Shown one piece after another: positions 869 to 60,683 of a stretch of 64,000 bases of DNA (position 1 is the first letter of the stretch; each line of letters begins with the position of its first letter). A program made the translations under genes and the position numbers. Below the pieces are notes generated by a model that worked only from the letters and a program-made list of their open reading frames with translations, searched no databases and was not told where the DNA came from. Origin of the DNA: Candidatus Woesearchaeota archaeon (GTDB lineage Archaea > Nanobdellota > Nanobdellia > Woesearchaeales > GW2011-AR4); the NCBI GenBank assembly GCA_018303505.1, contig JAGVYA010000020.1:97-64096 (forward strand), read 5' to 3'.

Positions 869-1032
869 GGCGGCAAGGGAGAATCGAACTCCCGCCAAGC
901 GGGTACTGCATTCGGGACTGTGAGCTGGTGAGCGAGTTTCTCGCGAACCTCGCATGTCACTGTCCCGCAAGGTGTCAACGGACTTTGCCGTTGTTCCACA
1001 GCCGCCTATTCTGCCATTAAACTATTGCCACC
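869..1032 (-). tRNA. tRNA-His(GUG) with 92-nt intron at canonical 37/38
   Basis: Cloverleaf by eye. G-1 plus acceptor GTGGCAA/TTGCCGC with discriminator C. D arm GTTT-AATGGCA-GAAT. Anticodon stem GGCGG/CCGCT, anticodon GTG at 997-999. T arm GGGAG-TTCGATT-CTCCC. Intron about 904..995 has bulge GGA, 4-bp helix CTGT/GCAG, bulge TAC. CCA not encoded. Confidence 0.75.
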
Positions 1033-1200: not shown

Positions 1201-1324
1201 AGACAAAAAAATCAGTAACCTTTTTAAATGACCATATTATCCCAATTCTATTGCCCGAGTTCATATAAGAGCGTTTCTAGGGTTTTAAAACACGATACGC
1301 TATTTTCTCGTGGCTTTATGTATT

Positions 1325-1373
1325 GGCGAGCAATGCGGCGAGCCTAAAATTTGTGCTGAAGGCACGGATTGAA
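1325..1373. repeat. short half-copy of the GC-rich intergenic repeat family (right-end module)
   Basis: ggcgag...aaaatttgtgctgaaggcacggattgaa matches the right ends of the copies at 4133, 25613, 31473 and 60552. Confidence 0.5.
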
Positions 1374-1892: not shown

Positions 1893-2025
1893 CCGCAAAT
1901 CACTGAGATGCGAGTGAGCAGTGAATTTGCGAAAGCTCGACCTGCTTGCGAGAACGCGAGCTCGCGTTCAACTCTTTCGCTCGCTTATGTCACAGCGAAC
2001 TCGCTCACAATTGTCTGATTCGCGG
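1893..2025. repeat. nested GC-rich palindromic repeat in the rps13-rps4 spacer
   Basis: Outer arms ccgcaaatcactgagatgcgagtgagc / gcgaactcgctcacaattgtctgattcgcgg match the hairpin elements at 32551-32675 and 14691-14750. The 75-nt interior (1920-1994) matches the core at 22381-22445. Confidence 0.7.
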
Positions 2026-3811: not shown

Positions 3812-3943
3812 GCGGGGGTGGCAGAGCCTGGTCAATTTCCGCAAGGAAGGCCAAATGCACTAGGTTGAGGGCCTAGTCCAAATGCACTAGGTTGAGGGCC
3901 TAGTCCCTAAGTGGGTGCGCGTGTTCAAATCACGTCCCCCGCA
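3812..3943 (+). tRNA. tRNA-Leu(GAG) with 17-nt D-loop intron and an internal 27-nt tandem duplication
   Basis: Acceptor GCGGGGG/CCCCCGC plus A. D arm GCA..AGCCTGGTCAA..TGC. Anticodon arm CTAGG-TTGAGGG-CCTAG. Long variable arm CCC-TAAGT-GGG. T arm GCGTG-TTCAAAT-CACGT. Length is 132 nt against about 88 expected. The extra 17 nt are at about 3836-3852 and the extra 27 nt at 3880-3906. Confidence 0.75.
3853..3906 (+). repeat. perfect tandem duplication 2 x 27 nt inside tRNA-Leu
   Basis: aaatgcactaggttgagggcctagtcc at 3853-3879 and again at 3880-3906, duplicating the D-stem 3' strand and the whole anticodon arm. Confidence 0.95.
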
Positions 3944-3979
3944 TTTCAAAATTAAAATTATAAAAAACGAGATAAAAAA

Positions 3980-4133
3980 TCAATCCGTCGCTTCGCGACA
4001 AAAGTTACACTCGGCAAAAATTTTTCCTGCCAATAATTTTTGCCTCGTATTTATTCAATGCATGCACAGGCGAGCCCGAGTGATATGGCAGAGAAGCGAG
4101 GGCGAGCACAAAAATTTGGCGAAGCCGAATTGA
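3980..4133. repeat. full-length copy of the GC-rich TIR/hairpin element (MITE-like)
   Basis: Termini tcaatccg...cgaattga. Terminal hairpins GTCGC-TTC-GCGAC and GGC-GAA-GCC. Internal hairpin GGCAAAAATT/AATTTTTGCC. Colinear with 25457-25613 and 53442-53650. Confidence 0.75.
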
Positions 4134-4166
4134 AATTAAAAACAGATAATAAAACTTAAAATCAAA

Positions 4167-4868: not shown

Positions 4869-5354
4869 ATGATAATCGACGCTAAAGACGCAATTTTAGG
4901 AAGGCTAAGCAGCTATGTTGCAAAGCAGGTTTTGCTAGGCAGCAAAGTAGATGTTATAAACTGCGAGGAATGTAGGCTAAGCAGCTATGTTGCAAAGCAG
5001 GTTTTGCTAGGCAGCAAAGTAGATGTTATAAACTGCGAGGAATGTGTTATTAGCGGAAGAAAACATGCAATATTAAATGAGTACATAAGAAGGCTTCATA
5101 GAAAGGCTCCAACAAAAGCTCCTTATTTCTACAGAAGGCCTGACATGCTTGTCAAAAGAACAATAAGGGGCATGATTCCATTCAAAAGAGCGAGAGGCAG
5201 GGACGCTTTCAAAAATGTAAAATGCTATATTGGCGTTCCTGAAAATTTAAAGAACGAAAAGGCTTTGACTGTTGGAAGCGCAGGGGTTGAGAAGCTGCAC
5301 TCTGCAGATTATTTAAAAGTCAAGGACGTATGCAAAGCAGTAGGCACAAAATGA
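4869..5354 (+). CDS. rpl13: 50S ribosomal protein uL13 carrying an in-frame 24-aa duplication
   Basis: MIIDAKDAILGRLSSYVAKQVLLGSKVDVINCEEC then RLSSYVAKQVLLGSKVDVINCEEC repeated, then VISGRKH...; uL13 N-terminal pattern. Confidence 0.9.
   Translation: MIIDAKDAILGRLSSYVAKQVLLGSKVDVINCEECRLSSYVAKQVLLGSKVDVINCEECVISGRKHAILNEYIRRLHRKAPTKAPYFYRRPDMLVKRTIRGMIPFKRARGRDAFKNVKCYIGVPENLKNEKALTVGSAGVEKLHSADYLKVKDVCKAVGTK
4902..5045 (+). repeat. perfect tandem duplication 2 x 72 nt inside rpl13
   Basis: Unit aggctaagcagctatgttgcaaagcaggttttgctaggcagcaaagtagatgttataaactgcgaggaatgt at 4902-4973 and 4974-5045. Confidence 0.95.
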
Positions 5355-21817: not shown

Positions 21818-21856
21818 AAACAAACCTTTTTAAATTAAAATCTTATCCCAAAGCGA

Positions 21857-22313: not shown

Positions 22314-22342
22314 TTTGAAAATTATTGACTAAAAACAAAATT

Positions 22343-22457
22343 TTATCTGCCTTCGGTAAATTTTTGGCTCGCCAGTGAGATGCGAAAGCTCGACCTGCAT
22401 GCGAGAACGCTCGCATGCTCGCGTTCATCTATTTCGCTCGCTTAGCTACCTGCTCGC
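22343..22457. repeat. GC-rich repeat copy, inverted orientation
   Basis: tatctgccttcggtaaattttt resembles the reverse complement of the tttgccgaaggcggattgaa end. Core gatgcgaaagctcgacctgcatgcgagaacgc..gctcgcgttca..tttcgctcgctta matches 1930-1990. Confidence 0.65.
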
Positions 22458-23576
22458 CTATTTATTGTTTAATATTCTTACCAATTGGTTTATTTGGATA
22501 TTGCTCCTGATACCTTCTCCCTTAAAATGAGTATTGCTAACCTGATACCTTGATTTCTTAATTTTATTCATAATTTTTTCTTTTTTTTGCAAATTTTTAA
22601 TTTTATTTCTTTCACAAATGTCATGCAGGTCATAAAATCCAATAGCATGTATTTTTGATTCTTCTTTAATTGTTTGCAGAAATTTAATTAGTTGTTTATT
22701 ACTATTAAAAATTTTATTTTTAAATGCGTTTTTATGTATTTTATCAACTAAATTTTTATCCCATAAATTCCCAAGCCACATTGGCCCTGCATCATTAAGC
22801 ATTCCGTGCAATTTCAATGCTTCATCAACCTTATTCTTTCCTTTTATATTTTTTAAAAAAACCCTCATGTAATGCTCTTTAGAATAAGAATATATTGGAG
22901 TAAGCGCTTTGTCATACTGTGCGGCAATTAGCTGTATTTTTCTTATCAAAATTCTTAATCCACTTTCATGCATTATTGCATCCTTCTTAGGCATTGCCCA
23001 GTATTTCCTGATGCATGCCTTTGGAAATGTGCCGCATAATGCAGATGTGTCGGTAGCTGTAACTGCAAGTATGCCGTCTCTTGCCAATCTTTTGCATGCG
23101 CTGTCCAGAAATGCTCCGGGATAACCAAACGGGTCAATGTCAATGTAATCAAAGCCTGTGGAATTAAGCAGAAACAGATTTGCATCTTCATTACTTAAAA
23201 ATACTTTATTTTTAAGTTCCACCGAAACAAAGTTTCTGTAGGGTGCAATTAAAATTTTTTCATTATTTGTATATTGAATCTTATTTAATGCTAAATTTTG
23301 TTTTATCAATTTCGTTGAATCATTACTATAGTCATTAATATATATTTTTTTTATTTTATTTTTTCTTAGTTCTTTCAAAAATCTAATGCTTCTTACACCA
23401 GTCGCTGCCAATGGGTCTGCTATCTGCAGATTATTCTTATTTATAGAATTTAACAACAAAACAGAAATGTCTCTATTTAAGCGCATTGCAGGATTGTAGA
23501 AAACCCCCATTTCTTTTGATACCTTATCTGCTTTTGGTACTTTCAGTTTGATTGAGCCTTCTGTAATAATCCTCAT
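22458..23576 (-). CDS. trm1: tRNA (guanine26-N2)-dimethyltransferase
   Basis: FYNPAMRLNRDISVLLL, DPLAATGVRSIRF, IDIDPFGYPGAFLDSA. Confidence 0.9.
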   Translation of the reverse strand: MRIITEGSIKLKVPKADKVSKEMGVFYNPAMRLNRDISVLLLNSINKNNLQIADPLAATGVRSIRFLKELRKNKIKKIYINDYSNDSTKLIKQNLALNKIQYTNNEKILIAPYRNFVSVELKNKVFLSNEDANLFLLNSTGFDYIDIDPFGYPGAFLDSACKRLARDGILAVTATDTSALCGTFPKACIRKYWAMPKKDAIMHESGLRILIRKIQLIAAQYDKALTPIYSYSKEHYMRVFLKNIKGKNKVDEALKLHGMLNDAGPMWLGNLWDKNLVDKIHKNAFKNKIFNSNKQLIKFLQTIKEESKIHAIGFYDLHDICERNKIKNLQKKEKIMNKIKKSRYQVSNTHFKGEGIRSNIQINQLVRILNNK

Positions 23577-25456: not shown

Positions 25457-25613
25457 TTCAATCCGTTGCCTTAGGCAACCAAATTTACACTCAGCGAAAA
25501 TTGTTTTGCCACTAATTTTCGCCTCAAATTTATTAAATGAATAAATCGGCGAGTTGTCGCGCAATGGCAGAAAAGCGACAACGAGCACTAAAGTTTGCCG
25601 AAGGCGGATTGAA
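25457..25613. repeat. full-length copy of the GC-rich TIR/hairpin element
   Basis: ttcaatccg...cggattgaa termini. Hairpins GTTGCC-TTA-GGCAAC, GCGAAAATT/AATTTTCGC and GCC-GAA-GGC. Confidence 0.75.
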
Positions 25614-31360: not shown

Positions 31361-31381
31361 TTTATTTGTTTAAATATAATA

Positions 31382-31473
31382 GGCGAGGAGGTTTAATGTC
31401 AGTGAGTTGGTGAGCGAGTCTCTCGCGAGTCTCGCATGTCACTAGCACAAGAGTTTGCCGAAGGCATATTGAA
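31382..31473. repeat. half-length GC-rich repeat (right-end module)
   Basis: ggcgaggagg..cagtgagttggtgagcgagtctctcgcgagtctcgcatgtcactagcac..tttgccgaaggcatattgaa; near-identical layout to 60463-60552. Confidence 0.75.
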
Positions 31474-31585
31474 TTTTTATTTTTTGGTTAAAGTTATCCT
31501 TCAGTTAATTTAGTTTGTGCTTCTTGCCCTAGACAATTAGGCACTCACAATAATAAAATTTAATTAAATAAAAATAAATCAAAAA

Positions 31586-33973: not shown

Positions 33974-34319
33974 GGGAGGACTCTGCCGGGAAGCTAGCAC
34001 TCTCCTGTCAGCGCAAACGTGCTTTAGGCGCGGTGAAGCTCTTGAAGCAGCTTGAGTCTTTGCATTTAGTCTTGCTGCTGGCGTAGAAGCTCTGCCTTAT
34101 AGGGCTTGTGCTTTTGAAAATCCGTAAGGTCTGGAAAGAAATCAACTGCGAAATCAGTTGACACTTTGTGGGACATAAAGTCCCACGTGCTCACTACGTT
34201 CGCAAAATTGACTTAAAGCAGCGGTAATCTTGAGCATTGGTGCTTATGAGTAACAGAGTGGAGTCGGTAACAAGGTAGCTGATTGCAATAACTTTTGCCC
34301 ATTCTTGAGCATGTCCTCC
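33974..34319 (+). ncRNA. unclassified structured RNA candidate (SRP RNA or RNase P RNA are the leading guesses)
   Basis: GC-enriched non-coding island in AT-rich DNA. GGAGGAC (33975-81) pairs with GTCCTCC (34313-19). Long-range helix 34050-63 with 34202-19. Hairpins CAACTG-CGAAAT-CAGTTG and GTGGGAC-ATAAA-GTCCCAC. AGGTCT-GGAA-AGA and CCTGTCA motifs. G-U pairs favour the plus strand. Confidence 0.5.
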
Positions 34320-34336
34320 TACTTAATTTTGATGAA

Positions 34337-41542: not shown

Positions 41543-42463
41543 ATGTTATTCTCTAAACTTAAGCATAAAGATGAAGAGCTTCTTCCGCCTCCACCTCCGT
41601 TTCCTAATCTGGAGTTTGAAGAACAAGCTGAGGAAAAGCCCAAGTTCTTTGACGAAATCATAAAGCCAAAAAAAGCTGAAACTTTTCCTGAAGAAAAGGA
41701 GTTTAGCGAATTAGTAAAAAAAGTGGAAGAATTAAAGCCAAAAAAAATGTTAAGCAAAAGGGAAAAAACAATTGCAAAAAAACGATTCAAAAAAATAACT
41801 CAACAAAAAAAAATAAAGGTAAAGAAAGCGCAACCAATAAAAATAATTCAAGTTAAACCAATAAAAGAAAAGAAAATAACATTAAAAAAACCTTCAATAA
41901 AACAAGCTAAAAAACCTTTACCAAAAATAAAACAAAAATTACCAATTAAAAAAACAAAAACACCAAAAATTGAACTGCCTGAGTTGAAAGAAGATTTTCT
42001 TAAGGATATTGACTTTGGGCTTCCAAAAAAACTTGAAAAATCTAAAGAAGGAACTGGATTTCCGGAAACATTAGAAGATTTTGATATTGAGGGGGAATAT
42101 AAACAAAAACCTAAAGAAATTTTAGAGGCTGAAGAGGAGATAAAAAGCGCTATTGAAAATATAAAAAAGCAGGAAAATAAATCTATATTAAAGAGGTTAT
42201 TTTCAAAGAAGTTAAAAGAAGAAGCGCCAGAAGAGCGTCTAATGCTTGAACTTCCAGCAGTAGATAATCTTTCCAAAATACAAAATAAAATAAATGAAGC
42301 AAGGCAGGCATTGATGAAATTTGACTTGAAGACGGCAAAGAGGAACTACATTGAGGCAATGAGGCTCTACAACAATATAAGCCCGGAAGATAAAGCCAAA
42401 GTCTACCATGACATAAAAGAACTTTATTTTGAGAGAAAAAGCGCAGAGGAACTAAAGGTTTAG
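41543..42463 (+). CDS. Lys/Pro-rich low-complexity protein with helical C-terminal domain
   Basis: N-terminal ELLPPPPPFPNLEFEE. C-terminal ..AKRNYIEAMRLYNNISPEDKAKVYHDIKELY. Paralogous to 42838..43773. Confidence 0.6.
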   Translation: MLFSKLKHKDEELLPPPPPFPNLEFEEQAEEKPKFFDEIIKPKKAETFPEEKEFSELVKKVEELKPKKMLSKREKTIAKKRFKKITQQKKIKVKKAQPIKIIQVKPIKEKKITLKKPSIKQAKKPLPKIKQKLPIKKTKTPKIELPELKEDFLKDIDFGLPKKLEKSKEGTGFPETLEDFDIEGEYKQKPKEILEAEEEIKSAIENIKKQENKSILKRLFSKKLKEEAPEERLMLELPAVDNLSKIQNKINEARQALMKFDLKTAKRNYIEAMRLYNNISPEDKAKVYHDIKELYFERKSAEELKV

Positions 42464-42499
42464 CTGATTTCTATCTTCTCCCCCACTTTCAACCTTAAC
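42453..42499. repeat. direct repeat copy 1 (47 bp, 3 mismatches to 43804-43850)
   Basis: taaaggtttagctgatttctatcttctcccccactttcaaccttaac. Confidence 0.9.
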
Positions 42500-42837: not shown

Positions 42838-43773
42838 TCATTTCAAACTGTTGTACAAATCCATTAATTCACCATAAACTTCCTTTTTCTCGTGGTATTC
42901 CATGCTCATATAAAGATTTCTCACCTCTAAGTATAGCTTCTTGGCTTTTGCAGCATTGCCCTTGCTAATGGATTCTTTTGCCTCATGCAAAGCTTTGTAG
43001 CATTTGCCAAAAGCTTTGCTTTTTCCTGTGAGCTTGATCTTAGGCTTTTCCTCTTTTACCTTTTCTTTTGCCTTGACAACCTCTTTTTCAAAGAATTTCT
43101 TTTCTGGAGATATTTTTTCTTCTTTTATTGGTGTTGATTTTTCCTCTTTTTTCAGCAGCCTCTCAAATATGCCTGGCTTTTTCTTCGAAATTTCGAATTT
43201 ACCCTTTTCCATCTCCTTGAAAAGCCCCAAGCTTTTGATTGCCTCCTCTAATTCCTCTGCTTCGCTGGCTGGCTTTGATTTTTTTGGCTTTTCTTCTACC
43301 TCTTCAGGGACAGCTTCTATTTTTTCTGAAATTGGCTCTTGAGCCTCTCTTTTGCCGAACAGTCTTCCTAAAATAGTAGGCTTCTCCTCAAGGATTGGTT
43401 CTTCTTCCTTTAACTCCTCTTTTATCTCTTCCCGCTCATGCTCTTTCTTCCTGAACAAGCGCTCAAACAAGCCGGCTTTCTTTTCTTCCTGCTTCTTTTC
43501 TTCTATTTCTTTTTGTTTTGCTAATGACTCTTGCTTAATCTTTTCTTCTTTCAGCCTTAGCCTCTCCTCCAAAGCCTTTCTTTTTTCCTCTTCTTTTTCT
43601 TTCCTTATTTTTTGTGCCCTTTCCTTATAGCCAGACACCAGATTTTTTAAGAAAGTCAAACTAAACTTTGACAGCTCTGCTTTATTCTGAGCTTTTATTT
43701 GAGCCTGCCTTTGCTTTTCCAACTCCTTTTGTGCCCTTTCCTGTTCTTTTGCCCTTCTCTCATCATCCTTCAT
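42838..43773 (-). CDS. Lys/Glu-rich low-complexity protein, paralogue of 41543..42463
   Basis: C-terminal ..AKAKKLYLEVRNLYMSMEYHEKKEVYGELMDLY aligns with the C-terminus of the neighbour. Confidence 0.6.
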   Translation of the reverse strand: MKDDERRAKEQERAQKELEKQRQAQIKAQNKAELSKFSLTFLKNLVSGYKERAQKIRKEKEEEKRKALEERLRLKEEKIKQESLAKQKEIEEKKQEEKKAGLFERLFRKKEHEREEIKEELKEEEPILEEKPTILGRLFGKREAQEPISEKIEAVPEEVEEKPKKSKPASEAEELEEAIKSLGLFKEMEKGKFEISKKKPGIFERLLKKEEKSTPIKEEKISPEKKFFEKEVVKAKEKVKEEKPKIKLTGKSKAFGKCYKALHEAKESISKGNAAKAKKLYLEVRNLYMSMEYHEKKEVYGELMDLYNSLK

Positions 43774-43803: not shown

Positions 43804-43850
43804 TAAAGGTTTAGCTTATTTCTATCTTATCCCCCACTTTCAATCTTAAC
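43804..43850. repeat. direct repeat copy 2 (47 bp)
   Basis: taaaggtttagcttatttctatcttatcccccactttcaatcttaac; contains the last 12 codons and stop of 43811..44536. Confidence 0.9.
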
Positions 43851-50024: not shown

Positions 50025-50676
50025 AAATCTCAACAATCTTCCCAAACGGCCCAGGGTTTACAACTTTTGTATGCTTTATTTTATCTTCTTTTCCAAAATT
50101 TTCATGCAAATGCCCGCAAATCAACAAATCAATTTTATTCTTTTCAATAAAATGCCTTATTGGTTTGTTGCCGCAATGCCCTCCAACAAGTTTGTCAAGC
50201 TTTGTTTTGTAAGGAGGAGCATGAGTCACAAGAATTGTTTTTTTATCTTTGTTGTCACTTAAAAATCCTTGATTTTTAAGTTCCCCAGAAGCTTCGCTTC
50301 TGTAGGATTTAATTATTTTTTTGAATTTTATTGCAATTTTCTCAAACTCCTTATCAACCATAGAAAAGCCTCCTCCTCCATAGCCAAGGAATAATGTGTT
50401 GTTTTTTATAAAATGATTTTTATGTATAAAGATAATATTCTTGAATAATTTTGATAATTTTCTAAAAGTAGTATCATCTTCATGGTTGCCATGAATTATT
50501 ATAATTTTCTTATTTAATCTATTTAGCCTTCTAATTATACCAACGATTCCATGCTCGAAAATAGAGATATCTCCAGCACAAACTAGCAAATCAGGTTTTT
50601 GAGCTTTTGTTTTTTGTTCTATTCTTCTCAAAGCCGATAAAGAGCCATGAGTGTCTGTAAAAGCTAGTAGTTTCAT
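50023..50676 (-). CDS. metallophosphoesterase
   Basis: FTDTHGS, CAGDIS, IHGNHED, VTHAPP, GHLH motifs. Confidence 0.8.
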   Translation of the reverse strand: MKLLAFTDTHGSLSALRRIEQKTKAQKPDLLVCAGDISIFEHGIVGIIRRLNRLNKKIIIIHGNHEDDTTFRKLSKLFKNIIFIHKNHFIKNNTLFLGYGGGGFSMVDKEFEKIAIKFKKIIKSYRSEASGELKNQGFLSDNKDKKTILVTHAPPYKTKLDKLVGGHCGNKPIRHFIEKNKIDLLICGHLHENFGKEDKIKHTKVVNPGPFGKIVEI

Positions 50677-53441: not shown

Positions 53442-53650
53442 TTCAATACGTTGCTTCGCAACAAAAAATAGTCTCGGCGAAAATTCTCCTGCCAATGAAT
53501 TTTCGCCTCGCAATTAATTCAATATTAATGAATAAATAGGCGAGGCTTCGCGAGTAGATGAGCGAGCGAGAGGCGAGCTCTCGCATTCGACTGGCAGAAC
53601 ATCGAAGCCTAGCACCATAATTTGTGAGCGTAAGCGAACAGATGATTGAA
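53442..53650. repeat. full-length, expanded copy of the GC-rich TIR/hairpin element
   Basis: ttcaatacg...gattgaa termini. GTTGC-TTC-GCAAC and GGCGAAAATTC/GAATTTTCGCC hairpins. Enlarged gagcgagcgagaggcgagctctcgc core. Confidence 0.7.
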
Positions 53651-53689
53651 GATTTAAATTTATATTTGTCCAATTACTTACGTCGCTGA

Positions 53690-60433: not shown

Positions 60434-60462
60434 TTTAACCAATTTTTTATTTTACAATGTAT

Positions 60463-60552
60463 GGCGAGGCGGAGCAGTGAGATGGTGAGCGAGTTTCGAC
60501 GAGCGAACCTCGCATGTCACTAGCACTAAATTTTGCCGAAGGCGGATTGAAA
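60463..60552. repeat. half-length GC-rich repeat (right-end module)
   Basis: ggcgaggcgg..cagtgagatggtgagcgagtttcgacgagcgaacctcgcatgtcactagcac..tttgccgaaggcggattgaa. Confidence 0.75.
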
Positions 60553-60683
60553 TTATCTTTTCAATTTTAATTTAGTTCTTTTATTTGTTATTTTAAGCGT
60601 TATTCTTTATGTCATTTATTTTGTATATTTCACAACGCATTAATCTATAATTCTTCAACAATAAAATTAATTTTTCAAAAAAT

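Follow-up and report, generated by a model that had tools for sequence, protein, structure and literature searches.

The closest described counterparts of the repeats reported here are the REP (repetitive extragenic palindromic) sequences, bacterial interspersed mosaic elements (BIMEs) and REPINs of bacteria, together with elements derived from IS200/IS605 insertion sequences. REPINs are mobilised by RAYT, an HUH-Y1 enzyme, and IS200/IS605-derived elements rely on subterminal hairpins recognised in single-stranded DNA (ssDNA). For the Woesearchaeota, a MITE-Tracker census counted ~105 MITEs (miniature inverted-repeat transposable elements) per Mb in one genome, placing it among the most MITE-dense archaea (PMC11602168). 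We analysed a 64-kb stretch of chromosome, hereafter the window, from Candidatus Woesearchaeota archaeon (GenBank assembly GCA_018303505.1, contig JAGVYA010000020.1, positions 97 to 64,096), and compared its GC-rich hairpin elements with these systems. The elements are lineage-specific interspersed mosaic palindromic repeats of Woesearchaeota and, judged by their likeness in arrangement, an archaeal analogue of bacterial REP/BIME (REPIN-like) elements; that this REP/BIME-like family acts or spreads as ssDNA is our preferred, and tentative, reading. The census probably counted the doublets described below, and it noted MITE density without describing the elements; we found no description of the repeat unit, the doublet logic, the covariation or the link to tRNA intron hairpins.

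The first-pass annotation of the window had reported three colinear copies of a hairpin element at 3980-4133, 25457-25613 and 53442-53650 (copies 1, 2 and 3). The three are colinear, with a mean column identity of 71% and nhmmer E values of 1e-44 to 1e-50, and a GC-island scan confirmed that they form GC islands in AT-rich spacers. Their anatomy had been read as left, internal and right hairpins around a variable GC core, which proved to be mistaken: the left half of a full-length copy, when reverse-complemented, has the same architecture as the right half, and a unit hidden Markov model (HMM) and a covariance model both hit the left halves in minus orientation. What had been taken for one element is thus an inverted pair of a single ~69-nt unit joined head to head, present as two diverged copies, L-type and R-type. 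The unit reads (A)AUAGGC-GA-P2 (8-11 bp)-loop (R)AUGGCAGA(A)-P2'-GA-GC(A)C-UAAAAUUU-P3 (3-6 bp, GAA loop)-(C)GGAUUGAA. It thus comprises a long hairpin (P1, a tandem G.A and P2) capped by the conserved loop R-AUGGCAGA (RAUGGCAGA in the shorter consensus), then the C-GAA-G mini-hairpin P3 and an invariant tail, GGATTGAA. L-type units carry an AT-rich P2 (GGCRAAAATT) and a P3 of GTCGC-GAA-GCGAC, and R-type units carry a GC-rich P2 that differs in every copy and a P3 of GCC-GAA-GGC; the former internal hairpin is the P2 of the L unit, and the former GC core that of the R unit.

The terminal inverted repeat TTCAATCCG/CGGATTGAA is a by-product of this arrangement, because two unit tails face outward in a head-to-head doublet. 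The inverted termini that had been described are perfect in copy 2 (TTCAATCCG...CGGATTGAA) and carry one mismatch in copy 1 (TCAATCCG / CGAATTGA), and in copy 3 they are degraded (TTCAATACG / ATGATTGAA). Of the listed hairpins, all are present as described but one: the right hairpin of copy 3, the P3 of its R-type unit, reads GUGAGC-GUAA-GCGAAC, including a tandem G.A, instead of GCC/GGC. Three was also too low a number of copies, as four partnerless units lie elsewhere in the window. Repeat finding and a profile located 3'-half copies at ~31380-31475 and 60455-60555 and a short one at 1321-1374, and the unit at 22341-22461 was added later by the covariance model. A 20-nt tail pattern has four exact matches in the window, and five matches with ≤3 mismatches against 0.56 expected. 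The ten units of the window, with their scores under the covariance model of the unit (R1), are as follows:

3979..4052, minus strand: L-type unit of copy 1 (36.1 bits, E=3.7e-07), matching the unit HMM as its reverse complement
4066..4134, plus strand: R-type unit of copy 1 (82.5 bits, E=7e-20)
25457..25531, minus strand: L-type unit of copy 2 (26.8 bits), its tail 32 nt from the aIF5B stop codon
25545..25613, plus strand: near-consensus R-type unit of copy 2 (89.3 bits, E=9e-22)
53442..53514, minus strand: L-type unit of copy 3 (36.4 bits)
53536..53650, plus strand: R-type unit of copy 3 (27.4 bits)
1322..1373, plus strand: partnerless unit with a degenerate P2 (29.2 bits)
22341..22461, minus strand: partnerless unit with a GC-rich insert (26 bits)
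31379..31473, plus strand: partnerless unit with a GTGAG-type GC hairpin (41.1 bits)
60460..60551, plus strand: partnerless unit with a GTGAG-type GC hairpin (40.2 bits)

The L-type unit of copy 1 has the tail GGATTGAT, a P3 of GTCGC-GAA-GCGAC and the AT-rich P2 GGCAAAAATT/AATTTTTGCC; its R-type partner runs from GGCGAG through P2 (GCCCGAGT..GCGAGGGC, with an internal tandem G.A) and a P3 of GGC-GAA-GCC to GAATTGAA, with the L18e start codon 33 nt downstream. The start codon of a PUA-domain gene lies 31 nt downstream of the R-type unit of copy 2, and the P2 of the R-type unit of copy 3 holds an inserted GCGAG-rich GC hairpin. Among the partnerless units, that at 1322-1373 has the conserved leader of the S13 operon on one side and, 26 nt downstream, the start codon of S13 on the other, and that at 22341-22461 directly follows the Trm1 stop codon and is itself followed by a T-run. 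The unit at 31379-31473 is antisense to both neighbours (DUF371 and Asn synthase), with TTTTTATTTTTT after its tail, and that at 60460-60551 is located between gyrA and scpB, antisense to both.

Model R1 identified ten units in the window and 132 in 79 loci (620 kb overall; loci are cited by L numbers), so that the proposal of a repeat family is borne out by many further copies. Nearly all units are intergenic, and all unit-bearing loci are Woesearchaeota/Nanoarchaeota metagenome-assembled genomes (MAGs) or groundwater metagenome contigs. When GTDB species genomes were scanned for the tail pattern, 116 loci were obtained, of which ~30 are true relatives, all of them Woesearchaeota/Nanoarchaeota MAGs, some under other labels; a stricter pattern returned 47 metagenome contigs, mostly from aquifers. 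Both scans are limited by the pattern used. Three matches to the pattern were found in viral contigs, and the one inspected was a chance match. Closely adjacent unit pairs in the 79 loci are head-to-head in 31 of 31 cases, 29 of them with heads 7-27 nt apart, and none is tandem or tail-to-tail; the doublets span 151-215 bp, and most terminate in TTCAATCCG...CGGATTGAA.

Units occur alone, as head-to-head L+R doublets, or combined with other modules, namely X, X', solo tails and GC-rich GCGAG hairpins. Solo tails are found 35-40 nt downstream of units in five loci (L008, L044, L045, L070 and L078), an X module (CGAGAGCGACTTTT...GTGATAAAAGTAAACCGCTT) or an X' module may be placed on the head side, and an outer flank module reads TTGTCCAATTACTTATGTC. 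X and X' are themselves conserved and structured, each ~60 nt long; they often adjoin an R unit on its head side and are multi-copy within one MAG; X, which contains a C-box-like GUGAURA, is present in L008 (5095-5165), L038, L093, L045, L098, L129, L131-L133, L155 and L175, and X' in L027, L044, L048, L159 and L170, and neither matches Rfam. The GCGAG hairpins are inserted in unit loops and also occur, in either orientation, in the tRNA-His intron (in the window and in L129) and as a free-standing copy between S13 and S4. In the window the modules outside the units themselves are:

53666..53684, plus strand: outer flank module TTGTCCAATTACTTACGTC beside copy 3 (approximate pattern search)
913..960, no strand: GTGAG-type GC hairpin module in the tRNA-His(GTG) intron (repeat finding; intron mapped with ARAGORN)
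1926..1990, no strand: free-standing GCGAG-rich GC hairpin in the S13-S4 intercistronic spacer (GC-island scan and sequence comparison)

The TTGTCCAATTACTTACGTC module recurs beside doublets in L008, L017, L041, L078, L099 and L118, and its L118 copy is upstream of the promoter of 5S rRNA. The tRNA-His(GTG) gene occupies 869-1031 on the minus strand, and the module in its 92-nt intron is the one also carried by the units at 31379 and 60460 and, relative to the tRNA, is oppositely oriented; the L129 ortholog has a 39-nt intron with a related GC hairpin. The module at 1926-1990 is the insert of the 22341-22461 unit in reverse orientation. The GTGAG-type hairpin (31401-31442, 60478-60521 and 913-960) consists of a GCGAG/CUCGC helix, a 3-nt bulge, a 4-bp GUGA/UCAC helix and a 3-nt bulge on the opposite strand, a geometry that resembles a bulge-helix-bulge without a convincing outer helix and hints that the inserts might be substrates of the splicing endonuclease. 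A tRNA-Leu ortholog in L130 (4860-4925) has a GCGAG-rich insert in the D-arm region, and ARAGORN no longer recognises this gene. LAGLIDADG-like open reading frames (ORFs) are inserted in otherwise syntenic regions of L128 (886-2424) and L130 (1436-2155).

The compensatory change in the hairpins claimed by the first-pass annotation is supported statistically on three alignments. In the fitted alignment of 60 hits, 91% of cells are paired, double changes occur in 16 of 17 pairs, and no shuffle reaches the observed score; in an unfitted MAFFT alignment of 13 sequences, 89% are paired against 29-40% when the partners are slid. An independent set of 44 metagenome units outside model building is 95% paired, with none of 500 shuffles reaching the score, and its P2 positions show up to four pair types, each with 11-24 double and 0-1 single-side changes. 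Orthologous copies upstream of S13 also differ in a compensatory manner. The non-Watson-Crick cells of P2 are, in 25 of 27 cases, tandem G.A/A.G, and at the P1/P2 junction GA/GA hardly varies (41 and 44 of 44); the tandem G.A always occurs in a pyrimidine-GA-purine context and recurs inside P2 and P3. G.U pairs make up <1% of P2. With RNA and DNA parameters alike, 43 of 49 units fold more stably in the sense strand than in the complement, and the structure is therefore strand-specific. The argument from covariation to a structure in single-stranded nucleic acid holds up. It has been considered whether neutral palindromes could be kept perfect by intrastrand template switching or arm-to-arm conversion, such that the covariation is mutational rather than selected; the great excess of double over single-side changes and the near absence of G.U intermediates are what this would produce, but template switching would erase mismatches, and the tandem G.A is conserved in essentially all units, as are the loops and the unpaired tail in MAGs with GC contents of 30-41%, which makes such an origin improbable.

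Whether that single strand is DNA or RNA is suggested by P3, which contains exactly GCGAAGC in L-type or CCGAAGG in R-type units, with rare GCA, AAA or TAA loops, and so holds the DNA mini-hairpin motif as defined in PMC13037366 (a GNA triloop, C-G closed, within GCGAAGC or CCGAAGG). As DNA, these sequences fold into mini-hairpins of extraordinary stability that contain a sheared G.A, and they are known at promoters and at sites of ssDNA priming (PMC13037366); their RNA versions are far less stable (PMC13037366, PMC3201870). The ssDNA form is favoured because of these mini-hairpin loops, because G.T pairs are avoided while Y-GA-R tandem G.A pairs are tolerated, because unit orientation is indifferent to host transcription, and because doublets leave no room for promoters. 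The last two points come from gene context. Partnerless units between co-directional genes are sense in 15 and antisense in 15 cases by raw count, or ~14 and 11 once doublets with a missed L unit are manually reclassed; a consistent promoter upstream of partnerless units was not found; and the 7-27 nt between doublet heads give no room for promoters that would start transcription upstream of P1.

The same observations bear on the serious, main rival, a structured RNA: either a small protein-binding RNA or a cis element in mRNA leaders and intercistronic spacers, such as a stabiliser or processing signal, with the doublet as a divergent pair or as an element that reads alike in transcripts of either strand. 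Strong covariation with conserved loops and junctions, tandem sheared G.A motifs, GC-rich islands in an AT-rich archaeal genome, and GC hairpin inserts common to units and tRNA introns are all what such an RNA would show, and the apical loop is identical to the D-loop of tRNA-His, AAUGGCAGAA. No Rfam 15 family matches the units at gathering score or at E≤10 (searched with the window, copy 2 alone and eight related loci), however, and C-G-closed GAA triloops are weak in RNA, the near absence of G.U from P2 is not what RNA would lead one to expect, and the balanced orientation of partnerless units, the missing promoters and the dispensability of units at given loci (below) speak against it as well. 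We regard a structured RNA as possible, if doubtful.

Also in its favour is the unit upstream of S13, which is placed in the sense orientation between the conserved consensus promoter and leader and the start codon in five of six genomes (the window and L127-L130); in L126 the unit is absent and the leader abuts the ATG. Other orthologous sites turn over. The spacer between tRNA-Leu and L18e holds a 156-bp doublet in the window, but measures only 21-40 nt in L126, L127 and L129, even though the tRNA-Leu of L129 is almost identical to that of the window; in L130 the spacer holds X plus a unit, and in L128 neither. Between aIF5B and the PUA gene, the window doublet is replaced in L008 (82% protein identity) by X, an R unit and a solo tail, and between DUF371 and AsnS the unit of the window carries a GC insert and that of L067 a different one, a tail being all that is present in L008. 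The presence of the same genes without units in relatives indicates that units are dispensable for the neighbouring gene; where they are retained at orthologous sites, they keep their structure.

The distance from a unit tail is 25-56 nt to a downstream start codon or 25-33 nt to an upstream stop codon, and that from a head to a divergent start codon is 15-34 nt; T-runs follow tails that face gene ends. These distances, together with the positions kept across genomes upstream of S13 and between DUF371 and AsnS, would suit immobile host regulatory DNA or RNA cassettes, acting as promoter-upstream, terminator or insulator elements at gene boundaries. Such a role is very unlikely in our view, given that close relatives have the same genes without a unit, that the promoter consensus of the organism (AACCTTTTTAAATA) lies outside the unit, and that BRE/TATA or oligo-T signals do not require stems that covary and hold conserved non-Watson-Crick pairs; in compact genomes with such short spacers, gene ends are in any case expected to be near.

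Another reading is a classical cut-and-paste MITE, in which a doublet with long terminal inverted repeats would be moved in trans by a DDE transposase and partnerless units would be broken halves. The doublets do resemble MITEs in being small (151-215 bp), intergenic and bounded by terminal inverted repeats, they are polymorphic in presence, and the density reported by the MITE-Tracker census (PMC11602168) would fit, as would the flanks of one doublet (L171) and the presence of an rve-family transposase in L127. The flanks of the others point the other way: flank-match lengths at doublet ends follow the distribution of a shuffled-pair control in 30 of 31 doublets, which leaves no target-site duplications, the sole exception being the L171 doublet with identical 10-nt flanks. 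The only transposase seen anywhere is an rve-family gene in the precomputed annotation of L127, unrelated to the units, and no autonomous insertion sequence with doublet ends was seen in the unit-bearing loci or in the pattern-limited genome and metagenome scans. Partnerless units, moreover, share one exact starting point (AATGAATAAATA-GGCGAG) instead of starting at random breaks, and combine with other specific modules, and stems that stay perfect in diverged copies are unexpected for decaying fragments. A DDE-driven MITE is accordingly hard to credit. Of the options offered by the first-pass annotation, the classical MITE is weakened by chance-level flank matches and by the lack of an autonomous element or transposase in 620 kb, a hairpin-recognising (HUH/Y1) enzyme is still plausible although none was found there, and the dispersed structured RNA is weakened by the even orientation of units, the scarcity of G.U pairs and the DNA-type mini-hairpin loops.

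The likeness to REP, BIME and REPIN elements is broader. Both are abundant, short, extragenic imperfect palindromes that are GC-rich relative to the spacer; both are positioned in intercistronic and 3' regions of housekeeping operons; both occur as singles and doublets and are inverted whenever paired; both combine with other short motifs into mosaics; and both are vertically persistent and polymorphic between relatives, without target-site duplications. The Woesearchaeal unit differs in its length, roughly double that of a REP, in its two hairpins and conserved apical loop (12-14 nt), and in being tagged by a 3' GGATTGAA tail (head flank AATAGGCGAG) rather than by the 5' GTAG/CGTC of REPs. 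Elements derived from IS200/IS605, for example the haloarchaeal PATEs, are also known in archaea and resemble it in having hairpins, which in their case are recognised in ssDNA, a strand-specific structure and no target-site duplications; their left and right ends are distinct and in the same orientation, however, and they insert next to a fixed tetra- or pentanucleotide 5' of the left end, whereas both ends of a Woesearchaeal doublet are the same unit in inverted form, with left flanks that vary. MITEs such as the Sulfolobus SM elements are also small intergenic repeats, but the Woesearchaeal elements are modular units with conserved structure rather than decaying copies and have no parent insertion sequence that we could find. 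The GCGAAGC/CCGAAGG mini-hairpins of P3 are the same as those of ssDNA initiation signals (the phage G4 origin, RSF1010 ssiA and phage N4 promoters; PMC13037366). Those signals are single sites on phage or plasmid ssDNA, in contrast to a chromosomal repeat of ~100 copies/Mb, for which any link to priming would be putative.

In the REP/BIME-like reading, the relevant folded form would be ssDNA, exposed during replication or transposition, rather than RNA, and a protein that recognises the hairpin and tail would maintain and spread the units. If the ssDNA form is correct, the agent most likely to do so would be an HUH/Y1-type enzyme like RAYT or IS200 TnpA. The units may also serve the host as ssDNA signals.

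Several observations weigh against this reading. RAYT/REP systems have been reported only from Bacteria (PMC6006769), and the host here is an archaeon. No Y1/HUH transposase, TnpB or other candidate mobilising gene was found in the 620 kb of unit-bearing loci or among the tested window genes: the IS200/IS605-type TnpA, RAYT or TnpB genes suggested at first were not seen there, although one copy per genome is easily missed; tblastn with IS608 TnpA and E. coli RAYT gave no match at E≤1; Pfam searches of 29 window and locus proteins placed no transposase next to or between units; and convergent units have housekeeping genes between them. Within a genome, copies are 70-80% similar, and no two R-units have the same P2 stem; unlike REPINs, they bear no signature of recent bursts from a master copy. 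The doublet arms pair with each other at the 9-nt tails only and form no single long hairpin, again unlike REPINs. At least one unit, in the 5' untranslated region of the S13 operon, is certain to be transcribed, tandem G.A and a D-loop-like apical loop are typical of RNA too, and X+R composites mostly face the downstream gene (~12 against 4, by manual count), as a structured RNA would predict.

A number of other known structures were compared with the unit and set aside. A K-turn or L7Ae site does not fit, since the internal loop is a symmetric 2x2 G.A without a 3-nt bulge. Inspection of the alignment revealed no boxes (RUGAUGA, CUGA, ACA) or K-turn of C/D and H/ACA guide RNAs, and the variable part is fully paired; a tRNA-like cloverleaf, split tRNA, RNase P-like RNA and hammerhead were ruled out by inspection. 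A pseudoknot between the apical GGCA and the UGCC of P3 is contradicted by the loop, which stays GGCA when P3 flips from GCC/GGC to GGC/GCC (L038 and copy 1). The bulge-helix-bulge splicing motif was not found at unit or doublet boundaries, and the inserted GTGAG module alone has bulge(3)-4 bp-bulge(3), with no outer helix. For the tail as a BRE/TATA promoter the distances to start codons fit, but the promoter consensus of the organism differs and lies elsewhere. Integron attC sites, which form same-orientation arrays behind promoterless cassettes beside an IntI gene, do not match, as the units flank core housekeeping genes in both orientations.

The window itself is an archaeal chromosome segment of ~35% GC. 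Its L18e homologues are labelled Woesearchaeota or Nanoarchaeota, that is, DPANN, and contigs near-identical to it come from groundwater metagenomes. Its housekeeping genes include an S13-S4-S11-rpoD-L18e-L13-S9 cluster, aIF5B, gyrA, scpB, the CCA-adding enzyme and Trm1, and both its tRNA-His and tRNA-Leu genes contain introns. The intron/variable region of tRNA-Leu(GAG) holds, at 3851-3904, a perfect 27-nt tandem duplication (aaatgcactaggttgagggcctagtcc twice), single-copy in five otherwise near-identical public contigs (L120-L122, L124 and L125). A perfect in-frame 72-nt tandem duplication at 4902-5045 is contained in the ORF at 4869-5354 (161 aa), probably ribosomal protein L13 by position; relatives have an L13 of 137 aa, a difference of 24 aa, and the duplication could reflect strain variation or an error of assembly.

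The S13-S4-S11-rpoD operon is preceded, at 1218-1312, by a strong archaeal promoter (GTAACCTTTTTAAAT) and then by a leader whose structure is conserved, with the motif CCCGAG..AAGAGCG..CGCU..CUCGG; this region has orthologs in L126-L130. The leader is a candidate for autoregulation by a ribosomal protein, analogous to the alpha-operon leader of bacteria. A promoter of the same consensus is found before 5S rRNA in L118 and at 21822-21835 in the window. The conserved non-coding stretch at 1115-1205, also found in L129, contains two UUCG-type hairpins (gaggcaaccugggaggugaug-cucacuucggugggug-...-aaucuucggauuc), the first of which differs in a compensatory manner between the two genomes; it has no Rfam match and is possibly a small RNA gene. 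An archaeal signal recognition particle (SRP) RNA at 33974-34320 scores 77.4 bits against an Rfam gathering score of 96.5, and is therefore taken to be a divergent DPANN version. Two repeats of other kinds were also noted: a 47-nt direct repeat (94% identical; 42453-42499 and 43804-43850), which flanks a 1.35-kb segment with an ORF at 42838-43773 and could mark a duplication or insertion boundary, and a 66-nt repeat (77% identical; 23193-23258 and 50257-50322) that begins with a hairpin ACTTAAAAA..TTTTTAAGT followed by a second small hairpin.

Palindromic mosaic repeats with a maintenance enzyme are well studied in bacteria and have no established archaeal counterpart. Genomes of Woesearchaeota and other DPANN archaea are very small and streamlined, and yet these elements make up >1% of the window sequence, sit in core operons (ribosomal proteins, RNA polymerase and translation factors) and reach tRNA introns. 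In its boldest form, which we rate as rather unlikely, the interpretation would be that the units are functional single-strand signals undescribed in Archaea, either the first archaeal REP/RAYT-like repeats with a domesticated enzyme or a new class of protein-binding RNA with a tRNA D-arm-like loop, and that the GCGAG-rich hairpins are independently mobile modules colonising unit loops, operon spacers and tRNA introns. If true, mobile GCGAG-rich hairpins would link intron content and intergenic repeats in DPANN archaea. The family also carries a caution, namely that covariation alone does not identify an RNA gene. It offers a ready covariance model, >100 independent copies with compensatory evolution, and filled and empty sites between relatives, with which public groundwater metagenomes and metatranscriptomes can be used to test whether the structure is kept for RNA, for ssDNA, or by a mutational mechanism.

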